From assembly GCA_012295275.1 (NCBI GenBank), contig CM022665.1, positions 11,346,001 to 11,410,000 of the forward strand: a stretch of 64,000 nucleotides of DNA, given 5' to 3'. This DNA comes from Chrysomallon squamiferum (Eukaryota; Animalia; Mollusca). Both the position numbers and the translations under genes were made by a program. Below the pieces are notes generated by a model. It made no database searches. It worked only from the letters and a program-made list of their open reading frames with translations, and had not been told where the DNA came from. Within the stretch, counting starts at the first letter, position 1; each line of letters starts with the position of its first letter. Positions 4,725-56,615 of the stretch are shown piece after piece.

Positions 4725-6598
4725 ATTTCCAATACAGAATTTAAAAAAAAAAAAAAAATATTGATGTTATTGTTGTATTTGTTCATCTTCCATTTATTTT
4801 ATTGTTGTCATTGTTGTTGTTATAATTCTTCTTCTTCTTCTTCTTCTTCTTATTATTATTATTATTATCATCATCATCATCGTCATAATTATCATAACTC
4901 TTTTTACATAGTTTAGAACGAAACAAAAGACTCATTTGGTACTTTTTCTTATTTCAGGAAATGGTGAATGAAATACATCATGAACATGAGACACGATATG
5001 GACATTACTAAGATAAAAATGTAAAACAGAACAGTTCCTTCTCTGATTGAAAGGACAGGAAACAAAATATATTCTGTATTTTTTTATTTTTTATTTTTTT
5101 ATTTTTTATTATTTGTTGTTTTTGTATGTGTGCGTGCGTATGTGTGTGTGTGTGTGTGTGTGTTTTTTTTTTTTGGGGGGTTTCTATTATATTAAAAATA
5201 ATTGTTTCTCTACTGCGAAATGTTACGGCCAGCAATCATTTCAAAAGTGATGAGCAGTAATTAAAGATGATGACCCTTCCAACCAGTACCACGATATATG
5301 GTTTATGTCTGGATTTTGCATATAAAATACTTCAAATTGAATATTCGTTCATTCACAGTGCATTTTATTTAATTATAATACTTTCTATTATCCAATAGGA
5401 TCTAAATTATAAAATTAAATAGTTAAAATAACTTACAAAATAATTGTTAGAGCATATCTGTGTTTATATTATTACGTGTGTGTGTGTACGCATGTGCGTG
5501 TTAGAAATGTTAGAAACACCATCTGAAAAAAATATTTTGAACCAACACTATTGCGAAGCTTAACCTTTGAACTCTCCTCCCCACAAACAATATATGAAGG
5601 TATATAATAATGTTCTTTGTAATTATCTAAGCATTAGCCATGGCAAATTATAAAAAATAAAAATAATAAAAACATTAATATGTCGTTCAGTCTCGAAATT
5701 ACATAATTTGTACTTGAGAAAGAAAACAACGTTGGTCACAGGAATAACTGGGTGCAGAAACATCCATCATATTCCTATAAGACAAGAAAAATGTTTACTA
5801 GTCTTTGTCATTCAACATCTTTAGCACAAAAGGTGGTTTTACTGATTACCATTAGACGACAGATACACAATCATGATATTTTACCCATATTTCTTCAGTA
5901 CTTACTCTTTGTTCCTGAGCTATTTTCAAGAAAAATGTATTCCAGTTCATGAGGCAATGTCCTCAGAAATAAAGATGTGCATTCAGTTTATCCTGCTGTT
6001 CTGAAACAATATTATCTGCATGTCGTAGAAAAAAGAAAAAGCTAATTTATAACTTCTCAAGCCATTTAACCTTCACTCCAGAGGCAAATATTTAATTGTA
6101 CAATTTAAAGATTTCAGACAATTTTGAAATGTAATATGTCCTTTTGATGTAACGTCAGTTACGCACTTATTTGTGATTACCTATTAAGTCATACACATAA
6201 CCCTGAGCTCTTTTTTATGTGACGCCAAATATTAATAGATTTGGACATAGGCAAGTTTCTTACTCATGGCCAAGTTCCTGGGTGTAGAGCAGCTGGAATA
6301 AGTTCTAATCCATTTGAATATAACGTCAGCATCTATTTTTAAAGTACTTTTAGTAATACTAAGTAAGAAACGTCGTCTGCATGCTTTGAAGTTATTTTTA
6401 TATTTGTGCTTTTTACTGATGTCGTTGTAGTTAATAACGAAGTATAACAACAAAAGAGAATTAATAGCTAAAACGTTTGGTTGCAAATCAAGATAAAATG
6501 GCGACATTAAAAGTATTACTTTATTGTCATACTTCATACTGAACGATGATAGGTCACACAAAACAATAAAACTAATAATGTAGTTAACACTTCTTTAG

Positions 6599-28131: not shown

Positions 28132-30044
28132 TAAACATTTACTGAAATAATAAAACTATGGATAATGAAAAAAATTCTTTTAACCCAAATTTGGAAAATA
28201 CATGGTGACACTGAAAATTATATTCATTATTCATGTCTAATCTGCTAATTGTTGGTTTATATATATATTCAAAATAATATGTATTTGCTCTTAACAAGTA
28301 TAGTACTTCAGTTTAAATTTAAGACATATTATAAGAAAGTTTTGATTTTTTCATCAGTCAGTATAAAGCCCTTTTTTTTTATATGCATAAATTGCATTTT
28401 CTACTGATATTCAAAGTTGCATGTATTTGCTTTCGAAAAGCACCATAATTTACTTTAGTTAATATTATAAAAAAATATTGGTTTTATTTTTTTCATCCTA
28501 TCTTCAGTCAGTTTATAGCTGTCTGTGTGCACACATATATATCTGTGTATGTATGTATACACACATCACATGTAATTTATATTAGTTTTCAGAATGACAA
28601 GTATTTGCTCTCAGTGTCATATACACATATTCTTTTGTAGATCAAAGGTAGACCTTCGACACGTGAGGTTGTTGCTAAGTATGTTATGTCTGAAGTCACT
28701 ATTGAAGTGGTGATCTCTCTACCAGAAAACTACCCACTGGGAACTATATCTGTTGTCAGTAACAAGAGGGTTGGGGTGTCACAAGCTCAGTGGGACAAAT
28801 GGCTTCTACATCTCAACATATTCCTGCAACATCAGGTATGTTCAAGTGAAAGTTAAAATTTTTATTTTTGTTCAATTTAGTGAAAATTAAAAACTGCTGT
28901 GTGAAATAATAATTATCATCAGATGAAATTATTTTTTATGCAAAAATTACATTCTATCTGCGGTTTAAATCCTGAACAAAGACATTTAGGGATTGTTTGA
29001 AGTCATTAACACATACAATATACAAGTATCTATAATATTCAGTTTGCAAAAAATATGTTGCTTTTTACCCTGATTCTTATACATTATTCCTCTTTATTAT
29101 TATTATTATTTAATATTTCTTAATGTTTTTTTCTTTTTCTTTTGTTGATTTTTTTGAGGGGGGTGGAGGGGTGTGTTAAGGTTTGTTTTTTAGCTGTGTT
29201 TTTGGGGGGGAGGTTTTGTATCCACAATATTACGTATAAAATAAATAATTCCTCAACCAAAATGAATGGCAGCTGATATTAATTTATTACAGAATGGGAC
29301 AATTTTAGAAGGTGTAAAGCTCTGGAAGAGAAACATTGACAAGAGATTTGAGGGAGTCGATGACTGCATGATCTGTTATTCAGTTCTCCATGGCACCAAC
29401 TTTCAGCTGCCAAAACTCATGTGCAAAACTTGCAAGAAAAAGTTTCATTCCACTTGTCTGGTAAGTTGGACAAATGTTCTGATTTATCTTATTATTTCTT
29501 TTTAAATTTCAAAAGCAGGAGATAATAAAAAAAAGATATAGATAATTGAAAGTATTTTTCCAGTAACTTTTGTCACATGAAAGAAATTATTTATTTACTT
29601 TTCATATTTTTAAAAAGTGTTTTCTTCTAAAAGAGTTAAAAAAATTCATATTCAAACTATGTGCTTTAAGATGTGTAACTAGTAATCATTTAAAACATGT
29701 TTAACTTTTTCATTAATGAAAATATCTGGCAACATCATGAAAGTGCTAACTCATACTCAGTAAGCTAGCAGAAAAATTCCAAAAGCAGAAAATTAAAAAA
29801 AACTTTAGAAATTCTGAAAAAGTAATTCACAGCTTCTAAAGCATAAAGCAGAGATCACTTTTGGATTTAATTTTGTGGGAATTTGTCACATTCCTTTCAC
29901 AGAGGTAATAACTAGATTGAAATCTTAAGCAAGATGGTTGTTAATTAATGAAATTATATTTGTGATCTTTTGTTTTGTTTCCAGTACAAATGGTTCAGCA
30001 CCAGTCACAATTCAACATGTCCATTGTGTCGAAATTTGTTTTAA
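7886..30044 (+). CDS. LTN1: E3 ubiquitin-protein ligase listerin (ribosome quality control), ~1742 aa, 31 coding exons
   Basis: N-terminus [27 protein letters not shown]...[19 protein letters not shown]; C-terminal [59 protein letters not shown]. Phase-consistent GT-AG exons: 7886-7933, 9020-9211, 9535-9633, 11468-11698, 12173-12225, 12575-12755, 13386-13559, 14062-14252, 14629-14770, 15060-15737, 16040-16274, 16666-16817, 17047-17128, 17909-18062, 18776-18917, 19360-19677, 20086-20204, 21033-21140, 21705-21847, 22300-22447, 22996-23140, 23726-23942, 24790-25027, 25341-25418, 25763-25949, 26286-26418, 27013-27142, 27622-27709, 28641-28835, 29293-29460, 29985-30044. Confidence 0.96.
14897..15022 (+). 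repeat. Degenerate ~45-bp tandem repeat (3 copies) in an LTN1 intron
   Basis: AAACTTA...TATAATCT(G/A)ACAGACTG unit repeated three times. Confidence 0.6.
20300..20375 (+). repeat. Dispersed repeat, copy 1 of 3
   Basis: TTCAACATAGCTCA...AATTA.TTTC.GCAG...ATGA.ATGACAC shared with ~23550-23620 and ~38132-38195. Confidence 0.6.
23550..23625 (+). repeat. Dispersed repeat, copy 2 of 3
   Basis: TTCAACATAGCTCATGCTGTGATCTCAGGATCAGAATTATTTTCTAGCAG...TGACAC. Confidence 0.6.
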
Positions 30045-31425: not shown

Positions 31426-34179
31426 TCAAACACGATTTCTCTCCTTCTGAAGTCTACTGCTGTAAGTCCGTGATACTAAATTCCATGAATCCATGTATCT
31501 ATCCATGCACATAGCTATGCATTTCTGTAAAGATAAAATGAATTACATGGCCATTAATTTTACAACACTGGAAAAAGTATCAACTAACAAACATTTAATA
31601 TAATTTATTTAAAGCATCTGATACATGTATACATTACAAACTAATAAAAGTCATTAACTTGTCAGGTTTTTGTGGAACTAAGATGATGATTATTCTATAG
31701 ATATATAAATTGTTTTGTTTTTTTAAATTAGGAATATTCAAATGTGCTTTCTCACATACAGAAATATGCTTATTTTTAATCTAGTTACCTGTTCAGAATT
31801 GTCTAAAGATGTTCCTGGTTTATGGATGCATTTCTTGAAACATTTTTCTGACATTTTCTGCAATGACAAGTGACATTATTAACTTTTATTTATTTCTCTT
31901 TTTTTTAAATTTGTTATCTGAAATGTTTGGCAGTGAAGTATTTCAAACTCAAAGTATGCAATTTTTCAGGTTTTGATGTATATGTTTATATATAACACAA
32001 GAAACGGATCCATGAAATTCATTTATATTTCATATACAGCTAATACAGTTCGCTGCCAGGGCTTATTTACGTATATTCTTTTTCTTCTCATAACTTTGTT
32101 CATAAAACAGCGTTTTTACTGATTTTGAATGACCAGTCAGGCCATTCACAGCAACATTTTGCCTTGCCTGTACAACATTTGTATGGCCTCTCCTGAATTT
32201 TGCTATTATTTTTTTTTTTAACTTAGAGTGCACTTTAAAAACATGTTATTATTATATCATAAAAACTATAATAACACAAAAGAAGGAAACAGAACTTATT
32301 TTAGTTTTATTAAAAGCTCTAATCATTAAATTATTATTATGTCAAGGGACCCACCCAATCAAACATCTGGAATGTTTTACCAAGCCTCAAGTCTTGGAAT
32401 GAATAAAGAGTTTTTTATAACCAAAATGATGTTTGCAACCATTTACAATGTCTACCATTACTGGCATGCAACATGTTTGTTGGATGTAGGCTAATGTTAA
32501 AAGACAATACAACTCTTTTCAGTTAATTTGAACTGTCCACAATACTCACACGAGCATAAGCAATGATACCTTTTGTTGACATTGTTTGCACACTGATGAT
32601 TTGGTGTTTGGTATGCCAGACTCCATAAGAAATTAAAATGTTTTAACACAAAGTAATTTTGGAAAATCTCAGGGGCCTATGACAGACACAAATATCGCAA
32701 ATATCTTTAGATTGTCCTATAGTTGTGCAGATATAAACAGAAAAAAGTGGAAAACAATGAATAAAAAAAATCTTGGTCTTTTACAAACCATAGTTTACTT
32801 GCATTTTACTTGTATAACACAATACATGGAAATTCTCAGTTGCCAGGCAGGCTACATGGTAAAGTTTTGACTCACCATAACATGCATAACCTGTATTTTA
32901 AACTATCCGAAACTTTTAACATCACTGTCTCTGCAGCTCAAAAAAAGATTTGGACTTAAAAACCTTTCAGATGAGGGACCTGTAACCTGTGTTTGTAAAG
33001 CATATTTCACACGTCACTGGATTAGTCTTTTAGTGTAACAATTAAGCCATTTTACACAATTCAGGCTCTTTCCAACATTGCATGTGAAAAGCTTGTGTAT
33101 GCATTTCTCTGTATATGGAAAAGTTCATAAATAAATTATTACCTGCTCTTTTTAACATGGAGTGGTCATAATCATAGCTTCTTTCCTCTTTATAAATTAT
33201 ACAAGAAAATTCATAATGGTAAGTATTAGATTTAACATTATCATGTGTTCAGATTATCATTATGATTATGTATGATGCACATTCACTGTTTAGGAATAAT
33301 ACTGCTTTAACACAATATAACATCACTGGGCGTTCACTAAAAATGTGTGTCCATGCAGCATGTGAGAAGCAATTAAATGGTGTTTATTACTTTATATAAT
33401 TTATACTTTCTTGAACAAGATCTTGGTATTCCTGAAAGAAAACCAATTAATTTATCATAAATCATGATAGTTTTGCCAATGCAAGTCTGATCATTTAAAA
33501 AATATTAGTATCTGACCAAAGGACACTTTTTGTGTAAACATTATAGATACTAGTAAACATTATTCCAGCTCACTGCCTTTTAAACTTATTTTAATCATGT
33601 GTAAAAGTATTTTTCCAAGGCATTAATGATTAATGATTAGATTTAGAATAGAACATAACTGTTTGCTGCTGTTTTCGTCTTTTTGTTAAAAATAAATTAT
33701 TTGAAACATCTTTTTGTTAAAAATAAATGATTTGAAACATATTTGTGTTAATTCTACTGGTCAGTATCAACAGAGATGATAAGTGGAAATGATCAAACTC
33801 CAAGTATATCATTTCTTTATCAGTCACTGAGTCAGTCGTTTTATTAATATTATTCTTAATGTTCCATCATCATTGTGCAATCGTGATGCATAAAGCTTAA
33901 GATAATCATGACAGTGACACTACTGCCACGGCAGCGATATCATTTCCCATAGCGTAATGCAAAGCCCAAATAATAAATATATTCAGATCACGTATACTGA
34001 ACCAACTAAGCTGTCACGCATCTGAGTTTCAAGAACTAGCGGCAGTGTGATGCAACATCATATACCTGTAACAATTCCTGTGCGTTGGCTAGGGCAATTT
34101 GTTGCTTAACTTGTTCCATCAGCTGCTCTCTGTTAGCGGCATCAAGTTTACCACCGGGTGGTGGCGCAGAGAAATCCAT
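31426..34179 (-). CDS. TIMM13: Mitochondrial import inner membrane translocase subunit Tim13, 93 aa, 3 exons
   Basis: Exons 34179-34066 ([38 protein letters not shown]), 31857-31789 ([23 protein letters not shown]) and 31524-31426 ([32 protein letters not shown]). Twin CX3C motif; phase-0 GT-AG introns. Confidence 0.96.
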
Positions 34180-34234
34180 TTTGATAGTCAGTAGTGGCCA
34201 AATTTAACCTTCAGACAGGCTACTATTTCATTGA

Positions 34235-37618: not shown

Positions 37619-40600
37619 TTACGTCTGGCGACAATTTACTGGGTTTTCAGACCTCTCCCCATCATCCTCATCTACATCCAGAAAACCTGTGATTCGATAT
37701 CCCATATTCATCAACATGACCTCCAGAGGGTCAGCATTCATTCTCTTCTGATTGGCTGAGGCTGCATCATCTGAGTTGTCAATCTCACGCTCATTTTTGC
37801 TGCCATCCTATAATATTTTTATTACTGATTTCATACACATGTATAATATAAGATTCACACACACACACACACACACAGAGATATGTGTGTGTGTGTGTGT
37901 GAAATAAAGTCTTTAATATATTAGTTTATTTTTAATTCATGGTTTTATTACCAAATATGTTTTTACACACACACTCATCCGTGTGTATTTTAAATAAAAA
38001 TATATTTGGTGATAAAACCATGAATTAAAATAAATGAATAGATTATAAACATTATTAGTTCAAGAAGATAAAAAAAATATACACAGTTTTGATAATGTAA
38101 TTTACACATGTACATCTAACAACATATAAAGTTTCAACATAGTTCATCCTTTGATGTTGGGCTCAAAATTATTTTCTATCATTTTGTGAAAATAGACTAT
38201 AACAATGGTAAACAATAAGTAACATTTGATACAATATTTTGTAAATTTAAAACAAAATGAAACCAGCATATGCTCCTGAAAAATAATAATGAACTATTAA
38301 TGAATCAGTATTAAAAAAAAAAAAAATTTCTTCTTTGACTTATCAAACTAAATGGATTTATATCTGTTCTAAACTCACCTCTGCTTTTGGACTCCACAAT
38401 CGCACAACAGGATCTATACCACTAGTAGCTAAAAGGCAATAGCTAGGATGTGGCTGCAAACAGTTGACAATAGAGTCATCTCCCCTGAGAACACGAACTA
38501 TGTTTGTTGTTTCTTTCTCCCATATGAAGAACGAACCATCATCAGATCCAGCAACAATGTACTGGCCATTGCTGAGTAAAATATCAGAGTAATAAATTTT
38601 AAACTTTGTGGACAAAATTTGTAAAGAAATGATTTTAAAGATTTTTCAAACATTTTGTGATGTCCATAATTTTTTTTTATCTATGATTACCTTCCAAAAA
38701 AGTTGGCTTCTTTGATATCGGTTGTTGTGTTGCAGTGACCACAGAAGCGGAATTCATAATCGTAAGCATCATTTCGCCAAATTTTCTCTTGTTCTGACAG
38801 AGCTGGTGCTCTTCGTTTGTTTGAAGTGTCATCACTTTTGGAAGCTCCACTTTTTTCTTCTATCATAATAAACATTTAAAATTGTAATATACAAACAAAA
38901 TCATTTCCTGCTTATGCTACCTCTGGAAATATAGGAAGAAAAAAATACAGACTTCAGCACATAAATATCATTTTTGTAAATATATTTTTTAAGTGTAAGC
39001 ATTCATTAGCTGTAAATATATAAAACAGTTTTTAAAACATGTTTTAATATAAAGTTCTCGTCTTCCTCTCAGTTTACTGAATGAAAATGTATTAAAAAGA
39101 TGATGTAATATGTAAATATGAAGATATTTTCTCATTTCAAAAACAATCAACAGCAGTTGGGTTTTTTTTTTTAACAAAAATACAAACCAAATTCGTAGAT
39201 TACAAACCCAAATCTGTCCATGAGAAAATAGCAGCTTTGATATCTCTATCTAATGCTTCACAAGCTGCACTTTTGGCATAATCAGGAAACTTTGTCTTGA
39301 AATGCTGTAAGCAGTTGTGTGCTTCTTGTGGCCAGGCCAGCTCATAAAGGCATCTGGCTAAACGAAAATGGGCTTTCAGATGATTTCCATCAAGACGTAA
39401 GGCACTGTGGCAGTCTCTCAATGCAGCATACAAGTCACCATCCCTAGAACAAAATACATATCTTTTTATAAAATTTTGTCACGTGTGTTGTATTATTTTA
39501 TTTCTTCGATCATCTTTTAACAAGCACAGAATGATATTTAATGAAACCCGATCCTCCAAACAAACAAACAAACAAGCAAAAAAAACAAAAAGAAAAATAA
39601 TTTAGATTCATAAAAAGAATAAAAAGTTGACAAAAATTATTTCTTCTATTTCTTAAAAATGTTATTTTCATCTTCTCTTTGTTATTATTATTATTATTAT
39701 ACTTTGTAATTCAACATCAGTAGATAATTGTACAGAATGGAAAACCAAAGGAAAAAAAAAAAAGAAAATAGTTCTTCATGTAGTTATATAGCATTATCCT
39801 TCCTTACAGATTTAAACAGAACTTTGAACATACTTATATCAATAATTACTGACAGGAATAATTTAAAAAAAAAAAAAAAAAACAACCTTGGCATGTGTCA
39901 AAATACTGAATTTTATTATTTTAAAAAATAACAAAAACAGCACGCATTTGAAAATAAAAATATGATCGAGTTAAAAATATTTACCATTTTCTCTTCATGT
40001 AGGCTGCTGCTCGGTTGCCATATAATACAGCTGCATGTGTTGCCATTGCCAACGCTTTGTTGTACAACATTATAGCTTTGGTGTATTGTTCCTTTTCAAA
40101 GCACATATTTGCCCTCTTTTTCAATGATTCCACAAAATAACCAAGATGACGAGAATCTGGCTTGTAACTAGTAAAAGACATCAAACACAATAAGTAGGTT
40201 GGTAGGTAGATAGGTAGGTAGGTAGGAAGAGAGGAAGAAAAGTGAAAGTAAAGCAAAAGCAAAAGCAAAAGCAAAAGCAAAAGCAAAAGCAAAAGCAAAA
40301 GCAAAAGCAAAAGCAAAAGCAAAAGCAAAGCAAAGCAAATAAATGTAATGTACATCATAGTTACAAACGACACAAATTCTAACTGGTAATACTCCATATG
40401 GACTCTAAAATTTTTATTTCACAACAGCTTAACAGAAACTGTATAATAATACGTAGGGAAAAGCACAGGCTGTCTGGCAGTACAAGTTCCTGCATATTTC
40501 CAAACACAAATTGAAATGAATTTTTAATTATTTTTTTTTCTTCTTCTCTGGAGTTTACAGGCTATTTGAAGATTCTTTTCGTTACTGTCATTAACATCTA

Positions 40601-43600
40601 AAACATCCATTAGATTTAACATCCACTAAACAAATACCGTTTTCCTGTCTTCTGTTTCTCATCCTCAACATCGCAGACTAGTACTGATGGAGTACTTGTT
40701 GAGGTGCTGGGAAGAACGGAGTGTTTGCTGACACCATTCGTTGTGCCATTTCGATGAATATTGAAACCATTTGTTGGTGGACACGTTGTTTCTGAAATAA
40801 AAGATATATAATTAATTTCAAAATCTTCAAAATATAATTATTAGTAGAATTGTAAATAGTTTGTTCCCTGTCAATGTTCAGTTTTAAAACCCTACTGCTA
40901 TATTTATAATGGCTTAATGCACAAAGATGTATTATGTTCACCAGTTTCTAATGTTTTTAATTTTAATAACTGTAAAACTATCTTTGCTCTCATTATCAGA
41001 TTCAAAATATAATTGCTCTAATCAGTTATACTGGCTAATATTTTCTTCAGTTCAATTGAGAATATCATAACTCCACACATCTCAGATTACATCATGTTTA
41101 ATAATTATGTTTTTAATTATATTCCTTTCTGCCATGATTGATATTACTAATCCACTAAATTAATTTAACAGAATGTCATCACATGATTATACTATATATA
41201 TCTACAGTGTCACTCAAAATTACATGCTTTCTCACAATCACTTTCTGAAGCTGCTTTTACATTTAACCAGTAGTAGAATATATATTAAGAAATTTGTTAT
41301 GACAATATATAATTTTTCTTTAATTTTGTTATCCAGTCAGATTAATAAAATAAAGGTACATCTAATTATATTCATACAACCATGACCAAAAACATACACG
41401 CACAACAAAATATACTTCAACATAACAGCAATTTATAGTACTTCATTTATACATAACTTTTATCATTCAGTCTGATACTATATCAGTGCATAGAGAATTC
41501 AGAGATTTCACCTTTTACTGGGACACTGGACTTGGCAAACTGAGTGGTGTCAAACTTGAGTGGACGTCTCTTCTTGTTAATGTCAAACAAATAGATCTGC
41601 TCACCACCAAGATTAACAAGTAACTCGTTACCATCGGGACTAAATGTCAGATATGTTGCTGCAAGAGTCCGGTATTTTTTCTTGTAGTCTGACTGCTTCT
41701 GAGGCAGATGACCTGACAGAAAAAAAAACAAGAATGATTAACATAACGGGAGATTTTAAAGTATTTATTTATTTATTTATTTACGGTATTCCTTTCCAAC
41801 ATGTACTGGAACTTACTAGTAAATATTATATATTTAGAAAACAAATCATAAAGTAAAGATCCCACAATTTCAGTTCAGTATTTTATATTTATAATTAAAT
41901 AATAATCTTAATTCAGCAGTAAATATAACAACAACAACATATGTTTCAAAATTAAATAAATTAAAACAAATGAACTCTTTCATATACCATAATTTTTATT
42001 ATTTTATATTCCAATGATAAAAAATATAAAATATAATAATAATAATAATGATACTTAATTCTCAACACATTAATCCATACTTATGTGATCAAGAATACAT
42101 GTCAATCATATATCAAAAAGATCTTCTAAAAGCAAAGCTTTTTTTCCCCTTCAGTATCCATATTTTTCAAAAGCATAAAGCAAATATAAGAATGTTGTAT
42201 ATGACTACAACTATCACAAATAATGCCAAAATGAATTTAAAAAAAAAAGACCAATGGGTAAGGTTGTTCAATGTTTTAGCTACCGTACCTGCCACAAAAA
42301 ATTCTGCACAGTCAGATGGTAAATCAAATTCATCAGGCGAGAATAATGTATTCATCAAATTGAGGTTTTCCCATGCAGTCCTGGCAAAGCAAAGTGGAAA
42401 ACTAAGCAAGTAACATATGAAAAACAGCAGACTGATACACAGAAACAGTTTTCTGTTGTCATAATTCAAGCCCTTAAACTAGCAGCATTACGAAGCTCTG
42501 AACATTTGATTTAAAGATTTATTGAAATCTGCTGTCCTGATAGCAGTTGAACTCCTTATTAATTTGATTTCTGATGACAAAAACATTATGGTTACTGAAG
42601 TGAAGCCAAAGATGTATAATAAAGAATTACTGAGCACTGATAAAACCAATCTAACATTTCTTATTTTCTTTTTTATCCAAGTTATGACATTCATCAAAAT
42701 AGAATTGCTAATTGAATATGAAATGTCTTGTTGATGTGATAAATACATACATATTTTTAAAATCAGGTAATGAAACTTCATTTTAAAAATATTTATAATG
42801 CATTTTTGAAATATTATTTTACTGCATTCTGTTCAGTTAAGGCTTGAATTACTTCAACAATAAACTTGAACTGTTGCTTCAGTCAACTGGTAACAAAAAC
42901 TCTGGCACCAATACCTGCCACAAAATAGCTAAGACATCCCTGCGGCAGACTGTAATCCTCGCCATCCACTGTCTCCAGGTGGGGATGTTCCCATGGAAAT
43001 CTGAATCAGCAAAAAGTCTCAGTTGGCAATTACAGAGCCACGAGAAAATATTTTATTTAAAATTTTGAAAATTCTCCATCTAAAATGAAATTCCAAAATG
43101 ATTTAGTGTGTATTTTATTGTTATAAAATCGGGCTGTCTGTATTAAAAGTGTAACGTTATTTGATTACTCACATATTTTTTTTTATTTGTTACGAAGTCA
43201 AGCTGTTTGTGTTAAAATTGTAGTATTATTTAATTACTGGTGGTATTTCTCATTATAAAAATTCTTTATTTTTTTAACTCCTTGTGAATATTTCTTTACA
43301 CTGAATTTTAAATGATTTAATTAGATTATTTTGTCTCAAGCATTCAAATAAAGAACACTAAAAAGAACATTTAACAGATTCAGAATAGAAATTTGTAATA
43401 ATAAAATGTGTCATTTTAAGATTAGAAATGTTATTCTTTATAAACAGAAACCAATCAATTAACAGAATTTACATCCACAATTATAGACTTCAGATTAAAC
43501 GTGCTATTTCACATGGAGTGGTTGGCTTGGATTACAACTGACAGGTCTTATCTAACTTTTAAAACTGTTTGGCAGGAATTCCTAATAAATTTTTGTTTCT

Positions 43601-46600
43601 TTTTTTAAATTCATAAATAGAAAGAAAATAAAACATATATTAAAACATAAGAAAATTATCTTTTAAATATATAATACAGAACTCTATAAAATATTTATAA
43701 CAAACATTTTAATATAAAAAAAAAAATAAAAAATAAAAATTTGCTATTATTACTTTTTTCTTTTCTTTTTAGGTTGTGCATATTTTGGGGGGTTTTAAAA
43801 TTTATTTATTATTATTATTATTTAAAGAAAAATGGATTCTGTATTCAAATCAAGTGATTTATGAAATATTTTTATACCTGCCACTAGCATCACCAGGAAA
43901 CTTCATACTTCTTGGTGTCAACATTCTACGATCGTACATCCTGACATATGGATCATTAGCACCAACGGCAAACAGTTCGGGTCGCAGTTGATTGATAGCA
44001 AGACACTTGGCTTCAGCATATTCTCCCATGTGTGCATTTAAATTCACCAGAACATTTCTGGGATTGCTCTGGCAACACTCTGGACTTCGCAAATCATACT
44101 GCCTGTAATAATGTAATTATTATGACACAAACACATAAACATTATCTGCTATAGTTATTAAGAATATATATAATGTAAACTAGTGAGATTATGGTACTTA
44201 TTTACAACAAAATAATAATAATAATATCTTATAATTCATTTTTTTTTTTTTGTTAAATATATTCTAACTTAGCATATCACACTTGACTGTATAATTTTAT
44301 TAACACAAATATATGTGCATTATTTCTTGTATTTCTAAACAAATCATATAATGTAAAGAGTCTTTTTTTTAAATAATAAATTATATCACACACAAACATT
44401 ACATATATTTGCATTATTTGTTTTATTTATCAACAATCTATAAAATGTAAACAAGCCAGATTATAACAGTAGTTGTTAAGTGTTTTTGTTTTTTGTTTGT
44501 CTAAATAATTATCATAAACAAATAAAAAATATTTAAAACTCTGAACTTTCCAAATCACACTGGCTGTAATAATATAATTATTTTATCAGAAATATGACTG
44601 CATTATCAGTAATACATATAATGTCCATAATGATGTACATGGCCAATTTTTCAATTTTGTTTTTATTTATTTATTTTTTTGACATAAATTATAATATAAA
44701 AGTAGCATACATGATAGTTCCATCTTCTGCAGCACTCCAAAACATGAAGGGAATGTCAGGTGCTGTAGCAACCCTCTTTACCCTCCCTGCATGGCAGCTG
44801 AACACATGTGTAGTCTCTTGCATGGCAATGTCATGTACACGAATCTTGCAGTCAGCAGCACCAGTAACAAGGACTCCATCATTGGAGCTAGGCAAGAACT
44901 GGAGAAAAAATACTTGATAGTGAAAATGCTCATTATAAATCTTATAAACTAAGTGTTGTGATTACATAGAAGAAATTCTTGATAAATCAAAATCTGATAT
45001 TTTCAAAAATATCTAAATGTTTTTATTTATTTTTTTGCTTAAATTTATTTTATTTATTTATTTTAATGAAATTAGTATAAAATTTAGATCAGAGAAAGTC
45101 AAAGAAACAATATTTTTAATTTCAAGTATATTTATTTAAAACTTTAAATTAATAGCTACTCTGACATTAATGTATAAAATTTTAATTGTTATTAAAGCAT
45201 AATAAAATGAAATAAATATTATATTTATTTACTTTAACTGTGAATATATTTCCCTGGTGACCTGTCCGAACAATGCCATGGGTTTTGTATAAAAATGGAT
45301 CCCATATGTACACTTGAACATCATCTGATCCACTTGCAAGTAGCCTAAAACAGAGAGCAGAAATAATTTAATTCTGAACCATATAGACTTTACAACAAAC
45401 CAAATAAAATAATGTTTGCTATTTTATTATACACATAACAGTTTGAGAGAATATGTTTTTTTATTTATTTATTTCTTTATAACAAATGTAATTTATTATT
45501 ATTTTTAGGTTACAAATAAGACCAAAATTCTTATTGTAAGCAACAGATAGCAGTTAATTTTACTGTTCCATTGAAATATCAATAATTTTAAAATTTACAT
45601 ACGTGCCATTTGTATTCCACTCCAAACAATTTACACATCCCTGATGGCCCTTCAAAACAAAAGAAATGTGACTATTTAACTGTCATAATTTTATATTCAT
45701 CTGCTAATCAATAACAATAAATTAACTTCTAATTCTGTGTTAAACTGCATCTATGACAGTATGAATTAATAATCTAAATAAAAAAATATGTATTATTCTA
45801 ATTCTTTTTTTTTTTTTTTTTTTTTTTCTTTTTTACTGTTTTGGGCAATTTGTCATTTACTTACAGTAATAAATGTATGACAGTATAAAAATACTGTTAC
45901 AAAACTTTGTCCAGATATTTTCAAACAGTTATACTTCATTATTAATTAAAACTGGACAGTAAAAACAAATAAAACAAAACTTGGAAGTATACTTTGAATA
46001 GTATTACATATTCTTACCTCTAGCTCCTTTTCAAGACCAAGACGATTTATTAAATCAGGTGTCACATGTAAAACTCTTTGAAAACTTGTGTGTACTCTTT
46101 CCTGAAAAAAAAAAACACACACCATAAAACAAACAAAGAAAAAGAGATGAAATTATATATAATTCACACATATTAATTATAAAAAGATTCCTTGGTAAAA
46201 AACAAAAAAACAACCTTAAAAATATTTGACAAATGCACTTTCAACATATTAATGGCACCTGTATTGTTGATGCAACAGAAACTGTATCATGGTTTTATGA
46301 CATTTTTCTGTCACAAGAGAAAAATGAATTGTCATTACATAATACATTGGTTTCCAATAAGACATAGATAGATGTTTAACAGTTAAATATGCAAAATACA
46401 CTAATATTATATAAAATATAAATCTTTTAATAAATAAATAAAAACATTTTTCCAGAATAAATGTTATTTGGTATTTTATTCTCTATTTGAAGATGCCTTG
46501 GATACATTACACACTTAATAAATCAGTCAGATGAAAAAGAGACTTAAATTACCAGGAGACCATTCTCCAACTTTCAGATTTTTAACTGAAAAAAAATAAA

Positions 46601-46753
46601 AAAAAATAAAATAAAATAAAAAGGTCAGTTTACAAACTTTGTGAGAAATCAAAAATAAAAGTGTCATTTGTGTCCTTTGGTGGTAAATAAGTCAGTCCTA
46701 CTTACATCCAGTTCTCTCTGCAATTTTCGTTTCAATGTCCATGAAGTATTCAT
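37619..46753 (-). CDS. WDTC1: WD and tetratricopeptide repeats protein 1 (DCAF9/adipose; CRL4 substrate receptor), ~704/706 aa, 14 coding exons with alternative exon 7
   Basis: Motifs RLGLEKELEGHQGCVNCLEWN, YFVAGHLP, ATYLTFSPDGNELLVNLGGEQIYLFD, TPR region LYGNRAAAYMKRKW, FCGHCNTTTDIKEANFFG, IVNCLQPHP and ANQKRMNADPLEVMLMNMGY. Exons: 46753-46706, 46101-46018, 45649-45603, 45344-45233, 44898-44711, 44102-43878, [43000-42915 OR 42380-42289], 41712-41512, 40791-40638, 40167-39985, 39443-39208, 38859-38691, 38571-38379, 37807-37619. Confidence 0.96.
37925..38034. repeat. Near-perfect inverted repeat (~38-bp arms) in the last WDTC1 intron
   Basis: TTTTAATTCATGGTTTTATTACCAAATATGTTTTT ... AAAAATATATTTGGTGATAAAACCATGAATTAAAA. 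Confidence 0.8.
38132..38195 (+). repeat. Dispersed repeat, copy 3 of 3
   Basis: TTTCAACATAGTTCA...AAAATTATTTTCTA; antisense to the host gene. Confidence 0.5.
40251..40338. repeat. (AAAAGC)n hexanucleotide microsatellite
   Basis: About 14 tandem units; produces the poly-Leu artefact in ORF 39981..40397. Confidence 0.9.
42289..42380 (-). CDS. WDTC1: WDTC1 alternative exon 7b (92 nt)
   Basis: ctttgctttgccag|...(R)TAWENLNLMNTLFSPDEFDLPSDCAEFFVA-G|gtacgg; phase 2 in, phase 1 out. Confidence 0.85.
42915..43000 (-). CDS. WDTC1: WDTC1 alternative exon 7a (86 nt)
   Basis: tttttgctgattcag|...(R)FPWEHPHLETVDGEDYSLPQGCLSYFVA-G|gtattg; phase 2 in, phase 1 out. Confidence 0.85.
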
Positions 46754-50900: not shown

Positions 50901-53900
50901 TTTTTACACACTATATTTGTTAGAATGTAAGGAATAGGCTCATAAGTAAGACGCATGGTGAATGAAAAATAATTAATATAACTTAAGTGCATTTATTAGA
51001 AAGTTCTACATATGAGACCATGAGTCTGATTCTGGTCATATCAAATGAAAAACAACCTACTGATTCAATTCAGTCTTGTACTATATCCGGGATTGTACTA
51101 TGCATATCTTTCCATCATCCATCAACCTCCATTCATGGTGAATCAGAATCCCTCACAGCACCCTGTTTGGATGTTTGATGATGTGCAAGCTTCATGTTTT
51201 CCTGGAATTATCTGGCTGCCTCCTGGGGTAATTCAGAATTTTTTTATTCATTGAATCTTTCAGTTTGCAAGTTAAACTTTACTGACTTGAACATCTCAGA
51301 ATTCTTGATGCACATAATGGTCAGGAGACGTATCATCTTGCTCTTTTTGTGAAAGAGTACTGCCAGGAAATGAGTGAATACTTTGCCATTTTGAGATGAT
51401 TTGCCTGCCTGACAAATCAATTTCTACTGCATCTGTCTTTTTATAATGCAATACTTCATCATAAGAACATCTAAAGAGATGCATGAGATTTATGAATTAC
51501 TATTCCAAGATCAGTCTGAAGATGGATTGAGTGATTGTGCAATACAGTTGTGATGATCAAGCCAATGAAAATGGCAAAGAGCATTTTGTCTATTTTAGGA
51601 GACAACTTAGATAATAGATAAAGCAAGGTTTTGCTTACAGATTCTGCAGTTATATCATGGTTCAGTTTGGTTTTGTAGCGACATTTATCTGTTAGAATAT
51701 TCTTAATTTCCTTCTTGACCTTCTTGGTGACTTTTGTCAGTGTAACATCTAGATCATCATCTTCTTGAACAGCCAGTTTCAGTACTTTATTGCAGAAGAT
51801 TATGATACTTACCATGCCTGGAGAACTTAGCACAAGAAGATTATCACCACAATACATGGAAACGTACATTATGAGCCTCATGCATGAAAGCTTGCTGTCA
51901 CCATATCCAATGTATACACTGAAAATTCTACTGAGTTACAAATGCACTTACGGTCTTCCTTGAATGATTGAATCAGACAGATCAGAGCGTCTTTAGTTTC
52001 TTCAGTGTTTTGCATACAAAAGTCATATTTCCTTGGCAAATAAGAAGGTCCTGTGTTTTGTTTGGTTCTTTTAAGATGTCTCTGTGTCGGAGTGGTGGAT
52101 GTATTTATAGATATCCAGCTTTTATTACATTCAGAAGCTAGAGATCACTAAATGCATAGAATAAATTATGGTGGCTATTTTGATTTTTAGCAGTATTGGA
52201 AAAATCATAGTATTCAATTCCTTACACCTCAAAATATATGAAATGCCTTTTATGTTTCTGTCTTATCTAGTTATGAAGATATGAGAAAAACATATTTTGT
52301 CCAGTATGATGCAGCCCATCTTGGATTTAGCTCTCTAGTACAAAATGCACATGGGTGAATGTATATGCCATAAACTTCAATTATTCACATAAGGAAAACT
52401 TTAGACTCTAAAATAAGGTCAAGCACAGATATGGCATTTGGTTGCCAGATTGTTTGACAAAAGAACAAAACCCCAAATAATAGGTTATACTGATGGGCTA
52501 ATGTTTTAATCATTTTTATTTGTTTGTCGTTTTTTTTTTAATTTTATTATTATTTATTTTTTTATTTTTTTTTTTTTTGTTGTTGAAAGGTATCTTGCCT
52601 TGATGTTACATCTGGTGGGCTGGGTGTGTCTTGTGACACTGATGGAAAATTAAGAGTATGGCAGACAAGTAATGGTGAAGTCAGAGTAAGTAAATATACA
52701 TTTAATTTTAAAAATTATTACTCTATTTTTTATTACGAGTGAGTAAAAACATATTTAATGAAAATCTTCATTTAATTTTAAATTGTATCATTATAAAACT
52801 TTTAATTTGGGAATAGAATTACAATGTTTAAAACTTAACTATTTTTTATTATTTCTAACACTAATACTGTTAGTATATTAGTAATAATTATGAATATGTT
52901 TCTTTCTCTTATTTTTTCCTTTTTTTTTTTTTTTTTTTGTTTTACATATTATAATAAAATATATGATTTAACCTACTGATCAGTTACGGTTTTAATGCCT
53001 TTTTCTATATTTTATTCTGCAGCACAGCTTTTTAAAGTTTAATATTTTGAGCCACTTTGTGCTGTTAATTTTATTATCATTTTATTTTATTTATTTTATT
53101 TTATTTTATATTATTTTATTTATGAAAGATCAGTGAGACTGTATTTTTGTTGATTTTTTTTTTTTTTAACAGCGAGAACTCATAGGCCATGTTGCAGATG
53201 TGTACACATGCAAGTTCTTTCCTTCAGGCATTGTTGTTCTTAGTGGTGGAGCTGACATGTTACTTAAGATTTGGTCTGCAGAAACAGGCAAATGTGCTGT
53301 AACACTGACTGGACACACTTCAGGTACTCACTGTAATTAAACATACAATCATCAGTTTAGTGTCTAATTTGTGTTTTTTTTTTTTTTTTTTTGTCCCCTG
53401 TCCCAAAAGTAATGAATATGTGTTTAACAAGACCCCTATACATGATATCAAGAGTTATTTGATATTAAAATTAAATTTTTTTATTTATTTTTATTTTTTT
53501 ATTTTTTTATCTACATTGATGAGATGTGAAGTAGATAATCCGTTGTTGACATTACATGCTTTTAGATCTTGTTAACTGAAAGGAGTGGTCCTTTATTGAC
53601 ATTTTCCGTTTAAGTAAGCACATAATGACATATTAAGCCTTTTGGTATACCATACATCAGGTCTTGATTGAACCTTGAGTTTTATGTTGATAAATAACAG
53701 TACACCCTTTTTATTAGTGTGATCATAATTCTAAGAAACATACATTCTAAAATATTTATTTTCCATAGAACAAAGCAGCAACAACCTACATTAATGACTG
53801 CTTTAAACACATAATCATTCGTTGGTTTGACTAAAAGGAAAAAATATGAAAATTTCAACAACAAAATAACAAAATCATAATTCACAAATAGATAAGTGAG

Positions 53901-56615
53901 TAAATATTTTTACTCAGAACTCATCCTGGATGAGAAATTAAATAGTGTTGGAAATCACTAAAATTATTAAAAAAAAGTTAATCTGTAACATGAATTTGTA
54001 TTTCAGGAATTTTGGACACTGTTATTGTTGATAAAGGTAGAAATATTATTTCATGTGGCATGGATGGAACAGCAAAACTGTGGGATGTGGGGCATCAGTC
54101 ATGTCTGACAACTTTTAATGAGTGCAATGGCATTGTGAACGCTTGTTCTTTGCATACTACTGACAACTCAATAGATCTTGGTACTTCAAATAGACCACCA
54201 AGTAAATATTGTAATCATAGTAAATTATTATTTAAGTTTTCATTTATTATTATTAATATTATTTTAATTAGTAATACTGAAGGAGCATTTTAATTAATGA
54301 TTTTAAAGTGTCTAATTATTTTGGAAACAAATTTAATTGAATGAAATATTATTTCTTTTTAAATACTATTTTATCATTATGTGTTTTTAACTTTTTTTTA
54401 AATTTAATTTTTTTCTTTTTTTTTTTTCTTCTTGGTAAATTATTTTTTTAAAAACACATAATCACCAAAAGAAAATTTCTAAAATTTGTGTTGTAACTAG
54501 TTCTTAAGTTTCATAATAAACCAACCATAATTTATATCCATTTCAATTGCAGTCATTATTTTATTGACTTCAAGGATAACCTGTAACTTATATTTGATTT
54601 AATTAAAGTCTCCAAAATTAAAAAAAAACAGTATGGTTTATGATTGTTCTGTCAAATGTTGTTTGTAGATGAAAGGGAAGTGGCAACAGAAGGTAAAATG
54701 TTATTGCTAGCTTGTGAAAATTCAACATTACAAGGATATGGTCTTTACTCTAGATCCAAGGTATAAAACAGAAACATACAGCTTTATTTTTTATTTTCAC
54801 TAATATTGCCTTTTCACTGTAATAAATTTTATTGATTTTTTTTTAATTGGTAATGCTAATTTCTTATAAATATGTAAATTGTTTTTTAATCTGAAAACAA
54901 ATATTTATATAAAACAAACAACTGTTACAGCATCAAAGATTTGATAAATGTTAATCAGAAGAATATATAATTTAAAATGTTTTCTGTCAAAAATCTTCAG
55001 TGAAAAACATTCATATAACAATATAGTGATGAACATGATGAGTTTAACATTATTCTTTATGTTGATATCTGTTTTTATTTTTATTTTTATGACAGATTTT
55101 TGAACTGGAGTGTCACAGTCCAGTAAACGCATGTGCTTTCATGTCAGACATGACTGCAGTTTGTGGCACACAGGATGGGCACATAACTCTTGTAGATTTG
55201 AGGAATGTTAGGTATGGCCTATAATCTGTATTTGGTATTGTTTTAAATAATTTGTAAATGTTTTTCTTATAACATAATTAAATGTACATTTAAAACATGT
55301 AATTAATATGGATACCTACTTAGATAATATATAACTGGCATTTTTGTTGTGTATGGTTTCACAGTTACAAAAAGAGACAGATATAAAATACAGAAATTAA
55401 ATATATGATATTATTTCATTAATTTTGTAACATTTCTTGTTTGTTTTTCATTTTAAAATAAATTATAGTTTTAACCATTTCCTTGCAATAAGCAGATATA
55501 TCTCCATTCAAACTTTTAGTACCTTTAAAGTTTTACCCAAGGACTTGAAAAAAAAAGAAAAAAAATGTTTTGTTACAAGTAGTGGACAACCCCAGCCCCA
55601 CCCCAAGATTCAGTTCACAGAATACTGTATCAGCTCAGTATGTGTTGGCCATCTATGGGGCAGCAGTACAACTATTAGAATTGATGGTTTTGTCGGAAAT
55701 TTAAATATGCAGTGACAGGGTTAAAGTAAATAAAAGTATTTAATTCTGCCCATTGTTCATTACAGATTCGCACATCATGTAAAATAATAAATTTACTTAT
55801 TATTGCAGTGTTCCTATAAAAGAGTGGAAGGAATCAAGATCAGCAATCTTATCTCTTTTACCATACAAACAAGGTTTCTTTGTTTCTACAGGTAAAACTT
55901 CCATTACTTTTCTATATATATATATATTTTTTTTTTTCTTATTATTATTATGTCAGTATCTTGTTAACTTAAAAGAGTAGTTTTAGTGGTATAAAGAATG
56001 CACTTAAATACAGCTTTCATGGTACCAAATTTTCAGATGATATTTTTATTTATTCTGGCAATGAGTCGTATCTTCTTCTTACATAAAAATGTGAAATCAA
56101 GACATTGAAGAACAAACCAAATTATGAATTTGTATGTTTTATTTTTCTGTACTAAATAACATCAAATATTTGCAACATGTAGCATATAAGAGATAACACA
56201 AATTAAACTGATAACCGAGTATTTAAAAAATAAATAACAATAACAACAACAACAACAACATAAAAACACAAGTTTTAATTAAATCATAACATCATAGGCA
56301 GAGAAAACAAACCTTTTTCTTATTATTGTTTTAAAATCTTGCTCAGAATCTTTTAAAAAAAAAATTTGGTTGTTTTTTTCTTTAGCTCTATTCTTCACCT
56401 TTTAAAGTTTTCTACTTTATTTGGATATTATTTTTAAAACTTCTGTTTTCAAAGGTGATGGTTCTGCTTTCTACGTGGATGAAAGACAAGAATGTATGAC
56501 AGAACTATCTGGCTCAGACTGTGATCCACTGTATCGAATAGTGTGTGATGGAACACATGTGTATACTGGGTGCAGAGACAGTGCTATAAGAAAATATAAT
56601 TTGGTAAATTTGTGA
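47355..56615 (+). CDS. PAAF1: Proteasomal ATPase-associated factor 1 (WDR71/Rpn14-like), ~396 aa, 11 exons
   Basis: N-terminus MAAVMHRLILQSDWDYVLWENRGEAWV matches the PAAF1 QSDW..GEAW pattern; WD40 repeats GHVADVYTCKFFPSGIVVLSGGADMLLKIWSAE and GRNIISCGMDGTAKLWD; C-terminus ELSGSDCDPLY...YTGCRDSAIRKY. Exons: 47355-47410, 47531-47571, 48043-48146, 48519-48614, 52590-52685, 53173-53323, 54007-54201, 54669-54760, 55096-55211, 55809-55891, 56455-56615; phases are consistent. Confidence 0.93.
47880..47976. repeat. (TTTA)n/(ATT)n microsatellite
   Basis: Visible tandem repeat. Confidence 0.9.
50640..52450 (-). mobile_element. Fossil DNA transposon (possibly Academ-like) in PAAF1 intron 4
   Basis: Frameshifted ORF remnants 51881-51471 (GDNLLVLSSPG...VSKTLLYLLSKLS...IGLIIT...LQTDLG) and 51484-51296 (FRCSYDEVLHYK). 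Oppositely oriented (C)AAGATGGC/GCCATCTTG-type motifs lie near both ends (~50696, ~50835, ~52170, ~52313). Family assignment is from recall only. Confidence 0.6.

Follow-up and report, generated by a model that had tools for sequence, protein, structure and literature searches.

WDTC1, also known as Adipose or DCAF9, is a ubiquitin-ligase adaptor that serves as a substrate receptor of CRL4 and acts as an anti-obesity factor in flies and mice. In the mollusc Chrysomallon squamiferum its gene carries two neighboring homologous exons, either of which completes the reading frame, raising the question of whether the two are strict alternatives, how such a choice could be enforced and what it would change in the protein. 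We addressed this in a 64,000-nucleotide stretch of the genome, hereafter the window. The reading that we consider probable is that these exons, 7a and 7b, are intact homologous copies that keep the frame only when used singly, that they are likely spliced in a mutually exclusive fashion and that they descend from a duplication probably predating the split between snails and cephalopods; coupled with it is a proposal in which an intron stem and the decay of wrong products would enforce a choice that swaps a loop of the protein.

Two copies of exon 7 in WDTC1

A tblastn search of the window with the protein P0001 places the coding span of the gene on the minus strand at 37622..46753, with approximate ends. 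By sequence orthology and by its WD40 propeller with a TPR insertion, it is identified as the WDTC1/DCAF9 orthologue; its exon 6 is 97% identical to that of Gigantopelta aegis WDTC1 and 85% to that of Haliotis. DDB1 binding and a role in CRL4 have been established for the human protein (excerpts of PMC10483223). The pair lies between two constitutive coding exons on the same strand, namely exon 6 (43878..44102), which specifies strands A-C of a WD40 blade and ends in phase 2, and exon 8 (41512..41712), which starts in phase 1 and completes a GH dipeptide. Exon 7a (43000-42915, minus strand) is 86 nt long, and 7b (42380-42289, minus strand), an intact second copy, is 92 nt; both are 3n+2 in length, bounded by AG and GT and free of stops, and the intron between them measures 534 nt (the other intron figure being 253 nt). 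The pair corresponds to coding exon 7 of WDTC1, a numbering that the mapping of P0001 also supports. Coordinates, lengths, splice ends, frames and peptides all agree with the tandem homologous pair of equal phases described in the initial annotation. The two peptides are identical at 9 of 30 residues and score 43 with BLOSUM62, a value attained by none of 10,000 shuffles (-17.7+-8.5), and each is the best non-self match of the other among the 1,413 stop-free, same-phase AG..GT candidate exons of the 64-kb window. By these measures 7a and 7b are homologous versions of a single WDTC1 exon.

The joins 6-7a-8 and 6-7b-8 are both open, whereas 6-7a-7b-8 reaches a stop within 7b and 6-8 reaches one within exon 8, with several exon junctions remaining downstream. 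The early stops uphold the earlier claim that use of both copies or of neither breaks the frame; the term "obligately", which the same annotation had applied to their exclusivity, thus holds for the reading frame, whereas the splicing reaction itself is only likely to be exclusive.

Both forms are also on record in other molluscs. At least three of the 30 protein clusters examined contain both exon-7 types from one species, the three larger clusters being represented by the 15 members listed for each. The isoform pairs come from Gigantopelta aegis (XP_041352476.1/477.1, RefSeq X1/X2), where they differ nowhere but in exon 7, from Octopus (P0020/P0133, in vulgaris and bimaculoides records) and from Sepia pharaonis (CAE1324425.1/423.1; P0174/P0175), and every difference in the three pairs falls inside residues 236-264. 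These isoforms are automated gene models; their either-or form, along with the presence of both copies in a further genomic locus (see below), supports the view that 7a and 7b are an either-or pair. Against Gigantopelta, 7a matches X2 at 26 of 28 residues and 7b matches X1 at 27 of 30, values within the range of the constitutive WDTC1 exons (about 80-100% per tblastn piece). Hence, the earlier suggestion that both copies are under selection appears sound, as such identities point to purifying selection on each.

Several other features occur in the vicinity of WDTC1. The plus strand at 28641-29505 holds exons whose terminal part is a RING-like cysteine cluster, with weak Pfam matches to FANCL_C and zf-RING, and which resemble the end of a listerin/LTN1 gene. 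A short minus-strand exon at 34036-34203 has no Pfam match and resembles the first part of a small Tim chaperone (Tim13, for example). Upstream of WDTC1 and on the opposite strand, a second WD40-repeat gene (52587-54293, plus strand; Pfam WD40) resembles PAAF1. At 51471-52144 (minus strand), a pair of AT-rich open frames, 154 and 88 residues long, shows no clear family in Pfam and is possibly the remnant of a mobile element.

The protein segment encoded by exon 7

The sole usable isoform model, obtained with AlphaFold2 for the 7b form (P0121; 88-sequence alignment, mean pLDDT 81.8, pTM 0.82), assigns residues 236-265 to exon 7. In this model the strand ending in YDRR leads into a loop (pLDDT 59-73) that contains a helix at 237-247, followed by a well-predicted strand at 260-263 and then by the GH dipeptide, in keeping with the earlier description of the exon as encoding a WD40 loop and strand. 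Over the 88 homologues, conservation is low at 236-255, with the exception of W238, and high at P256, C259, position 262 and A265-H267, being concentrated in the last third of the exon. The pattern suggests that the structural strand is common to the copies and that the loop is where they diverge. In heterodont-type bivalves (L030, L031; P0031, P0042, P0071, P0022) exon 7 is cut to 59 nt, with most of the variable loop gone and the strand kept, which implies that some lineages can do without the loop in folding. The nearest solved structures are those of DCAF8-DDB1 (9u7t) and DCAF5 (8tl6).

Exchanging one copy for the other would alter the loop of about 20 residues after YDRR and keep the LP-x-x-C-x-x-[YF]-[YF]-VAG strand, by which the blade is completed; both isoforms would fold, and they would differ in a partner-binding surface. 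In the standard WD40 topology, a C-D loop emerges on the opposite face from the top substrate pocket, on the side where DCAFs meet DDB1. The changed surface would more likely be the DDB1 side, the rim or a contact with TRiC/CCT than the top substrate pocket. According to section 17 of PMC10483223, residues 242-343 of human WDTC1 are required for full binding of TRiC/CCT; judged by position without a human alignment, this region likely overlaps the second half of exon 7. Taken together, the loop topology and the TRiC/CCT region make changed partner docking or folding at least as likely as a switch of substrates.

It had originally been proposed that the isoforms switch the substrate specificity of CRL4 by tissue or stage, a functional reading that we regard as doubtful. 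It would be consistent with a variable loop that is exposed and strongly different between the copies over some 20 residues, with a helix predicted in the 7b version, and with the capacity of WD40 rim loops to bind partners (excerpts of PMC13587420); moreover, the insertion, at 40 residues, may reach other faces of the propeller. However, it runs from the YDRR end of the C strand to the outer D strand and, by standard topology, its variable part faces away from the usual top pocket, and no mollusc WDTC1 substrate was found in the literature searched.

Origin of the pair

A scan of metagenome contigs for WDTC1 yielded 80 loci, 25 of which reach from exon 6 across to exon 8. A single copy of exon 7 is present in 24 of these spanning loci (20 closely related annelid-like, two bivalve-like and two insect-like loci), and the sole spanning locus with both copies is L004, where they occupy 5809-5900 and 6154-6245, each 92 nt long, with the order, phases and frame logic of the C. 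squamiferum pair. L004 is placed among annelid-like rows with a UFBoot value of 70, while its grouping with molluscs is not rejected (p 0.48); it is probably an annelid locus. Each of its two exons lies inside its own predicted hairpin (5740-5938 and 6078-6282), the first of which covers the 7a donor, and a 17-nt near-copy of the 7b acceptor occurs at 6270-6286.

Among the protein records examined, a single exon-7 type each was found in Haliotis, Patella, Pomacea, Biomphalaria, oyster, mussel, scallop and the arthropod clusters, that type being 7a in the first four. Single records are b-like in chiton, Lingula, unionid mussels and Tubulanus and a-like in most gastropods, Lamellibrachia and Lineus, a sorting that fits either reciprocal loss or incomplete annotation. 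Searches with a b profile recovered additional exons of the b type, each as an isolated unnamed ORF (P0221, P0278, P0280, P0281, P0288 and P0289), which by their nature say nothing on whether an a copy accompanies them. Of the 20 b-profile matches, two giant repeat proteins were dismissed as chance, and a search with residues 222-285 of P0121 returned just two matches, both to already known proteins.

In all 10 between-taxon comparisons among five pairs, the summed a-a and b-b scores exceed both the a-b plus b-a sums and the within-species sums. In an exon tree of 24 rows, which were chosen after scoring and with 17 others omitted, all 12 a-types fall on one side (SH-aLRT 99), and two chelicerate exons fall on the b side. 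When all 41 rows are included, the cephalopod b exons shift to the a side, and the a-types group at an SH-aLRT of 83 against the paired b rows. In a 30-row tree 21 of the 27 branches are unresolved, and all these exon trees rest on only about 30 columns. A single duplication predating the split of gastropods and cephalopods, which dates to the Cambrian, is the best reading of these comparisons and, we believe, quite a likely one, whereas we are less sure of an origin spanning all lophotrochozoans.

The competing view is that the either-or splicing is real and that the pairs of gastropods, cephalopods and L004 arose through separate duplications of exon 7 and became alike by convergence. Duplications confined to each of these lineages are not rejected by AU tests, with p values of 0.23, 0.26 and 0.08, respectively; the change of side by the cephalopod b exons, the prevalence of a single copy in the spanning loci and the scores of the L004 7b, for which other b exons (11-34) have no advantage over a exons (13-44), would be in keeping with it. 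Against this stand the same-type sums, which surpass the within-species sums without exception, the clustering of the a-types in both trees, the equal order of the copies in the two genomic loci, that is, the window and L004, and the single-isoform records of other lophotrochozoans, which partly sort into a-like and b-like forms. Repeated duplication thus strikes us as unlikely.

Splicing of the pair and its relation to known systems

RNA from C. squamiferum was available as assembled contigs from four runs of one study, which were placed on positions 40500-45500 of the window; such assembly drops minor variants. Exons 6, 7a and 8 are joined in every run, in contigs of depths 51.5, 8.7, 10.7 and 16.6, so that among the junctions that the initial annotation had proposed to count, 43878->43000 and 42915->41712 are seen in all four. 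None of the four runs contains a splice junction of 7b, and neither the 7a-7b joint (42915->42380) nor the 6-8 joint is seen in these non-quantitative contigs. With 7a alone joined throughout, the sampled runs do not bear out the use of 7b as a second isoform that had been suggested. As contigs lose minor variants, the data indicate dominance of 7a in these samples rather than disuse of 7b; we infer that the sampled tissue mainly makes the 7a form, with 7b being minor or tissue-limited. Exon 7b is covered by unspliced contigs alone, at 42270-42539 in run X2 (depth 3.75) and at 42149-42365 in run X3 (depth 2.5), and run X4 has a contig piece just upstream of it. In these three runs, the sole intronic contig cover within 40500-45500 is this unspliced material on or beside 7b (42149-42569; depth 2.5-3.75), which may reflect slow removal of the intron flanking 7b or an effect of assembly. 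The X3 contig has a one-base insertion in a short homopolymer of 7b, representing either an error or an allele.

These observations have to be weighed against the idea that 7b is not a productive alternative in C. squamiferum, being either a fading relic or an exon included only with 7a to trigger decay and thereby tune WDTC1. The absence of spliced 7b from all four runs, the unspliced contigs on or beside it in three of them and the insertion in one low-depth contig could all be accommodated in this manner. Yet 7b retains its 27 of 30 residues in the WDTC1 frame when compared with Gigantopelta, a constitutive-like level that would be needless in a decay-only exon, a full-length model with 7b exists in that species, and the Logan contigs used here omit minor variants; hence, we see a small chance at most for 7b being nonproductive. 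Chance similarity, or an assembly artefact in the form of a second haplotype or a stray copy, might be suspected from a peptide identity of just 30% over 30 residues, but it is effectively refuted by the shuffles, by the record of both forms in other species and by RNA contigs that are continuous across 7b and its flanks.

Returning to 7a and 7b as likely mutually exclusive exons, we find a candidate basis for exclusivity in the intron between them. Its predicted 5' stem arm (42839..42884, minus strand) starts 30 nt past the 7a donor, and the predicted 3' arm (42430..42474, minus strand) ends 49 nt before the 7b acceptor; positions 42884-42839 pair with 42474-42430 at a predicted probability of 0.95-0.98. 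The head-tail duplex has an energy of -61.9 kcal/mol, as opposed to -35.5+-4.8 in shuffles, none of 300 of which is as low, and among 14 WDTC1 introns (six with approximate ends) this is the only one with a significant duplex. The fold of the whole intron has a z of -2.85, and a single stem dominates (-52.3, with the next best at -27.2). Its core is a perfect helix of 14 bp located at -94 to -81 from the 7b acceptor (0 of 200 shuffles); the perfect-helix test, which was devised after the helix had been seen, is not significant for four flanking introns (81-194 of 200 shuffles). L004 also has a perfect helix, of 13 bp and unrelated sequence, with its 3' arm at -90 to -78 (0 of 200 shuffles). 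In that locus neither the head-tail test (125 of 300 shuffles, with one control intron reaching 5 of 300) nor the whole-intron fold (z -1.22) is significant. Complementary intronic elements beyond chance are accordingly found in the window and, for L004, in one of three tests.

A scan for T-N-A-Y motifs suggests candidate branch-point adenosines for 7b at -31 and -38 (42411..42418, minus strand). With the stem folded, the unpaired distance in the window adds up to about 42-49 bases, 30 of them following the 7a donor and 12-19 preceding the candidate branch points; excerpts of PMC7969005 give about 50 nt as the steric limit for the distance from a 5' splice site to a branch point. In L004 the unpaired distance is about 66-92 nt, which is over this limit. 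The long-range stem would thus fold the 534-nt intron, bringing the 7a donor within about 42-49 unpaired bases of the likely 7b branch point, and a distance this short, near the steric limit, would hinder the joining of 7a to 7b. Nonsense-mediated decay would clear the wrong products that remain: double use or skipping loses the frame and would mark them as decay targets, and excerpts of PMC6071210 list the decay of wrong-frame products as a route to exclusivity. On these models we give the stem an even chance of having a role in exclusivity.

Two other mechanisms were considered and rejected. A U12 hybrid mechanism is at odds with the donors GTATTG and GTACGG, which are unlike the U12 donor consensus. 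A mechanism based on a short intron or a distant branch point does not fit introns of 534 and 253 nt or the AG about 21 nt before the 7b acceptor, the branch points being candidates; a long AG-free zone is absent before 7b.

A more far-reaching scenario, which we offer tentatively as possible rather than probable, is that the pair arose once in an early lophotrochozoan and that an RNA-stem-enforced switch was kept in some snails, cephalopods and annelids, with reciprocal loss elsewhere leaving the a-type in most gastropod records and the b-type in those of chiton, brachiopod, a unionid mussel and one nemertean. The switch would swap a propeller insertion that sets the chaperonin or DDB1 docking of this CRL4 receptor, and the stem would have stayed in place through a complete turnover of its sequence.

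No description of the WDTC1 exon pair was found in the literature searched, whose coverage leaves out most subscription papers, in agreement with the earlier statement that no mutually exclusive exons are known to have been described in this gene. WDTC1, DCAF and WDR genes are absent from the human tandem-exon table in the supplement of PMC8373072, where the control genes ATE1 and FYN are present, and WDTC1 is likewise absent from the main text of PMC9741552. The claim that human WDTC1 has one copy of the segment is thereby supported indirectly, through absence from that table. The pair is conserved and apparently undescribed; as it belongs to a familiar class, and as automated gene models of both isoforms are already available, the surprise is moderate. 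It gives a conserved metabolic ubiquitin-ligase receptor an either-or exon that is likely very old, with no such event on record in humans, and it supplies two naturally occurring versions of a little-understood part of WDTC1, inside the region linked to chaperonin binding by work on the human protein. With the predicted stem one may further ask whether folding can make an intron of about 500 nt sterically blocked.

Among known systems, exons 7a and 7b of human ATE1 are likewise an old internal tandem-duplicated pair in a gene of a protein-degradation pathway (excerpts of PMC7797038), listed as an internal tandem-exon event of bilaterian age in the human table (PMC8373072). In ATE1, intronic pairings that compete with one another mask either of two 3' splice sites, as proven by compensatory mutation (excerpts of PMC7797038); the WDTC1 pairings are predicted. 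The window, moreover, has one dominant stem rather than clear competition. For one intronic element of L004, the predicted pairings with partners at the acceptor of 7a and close to that of 7b are almost equally strong (-44.1, -46.9 and -37.6 kcal/mol, in a scan run without a shuffle control), which recalls the competing pairings of ATE1 as set out in those excerpts. WDTC1 shares with OGDH exons 4a/4b the proposed basis of exclusivity, a distance of under about 50 nt from the 5' splice site to the branch point; in OGDH this comes from distant branch points and a short intron (excerpts of PMC7969005), whereas in the 534-nt WDTC1 intron the shortness would come from folding. Like the human substitutions derived from tandem exon duplication (PMC8373072; excerpts of PMC9741552), 7a and 7b are homologous either-or exons of a kind that is often ancient and that swaps a segment of an otherwise identical protein; unlike that set, the WDTC1 pair lies outside the vertebrates.
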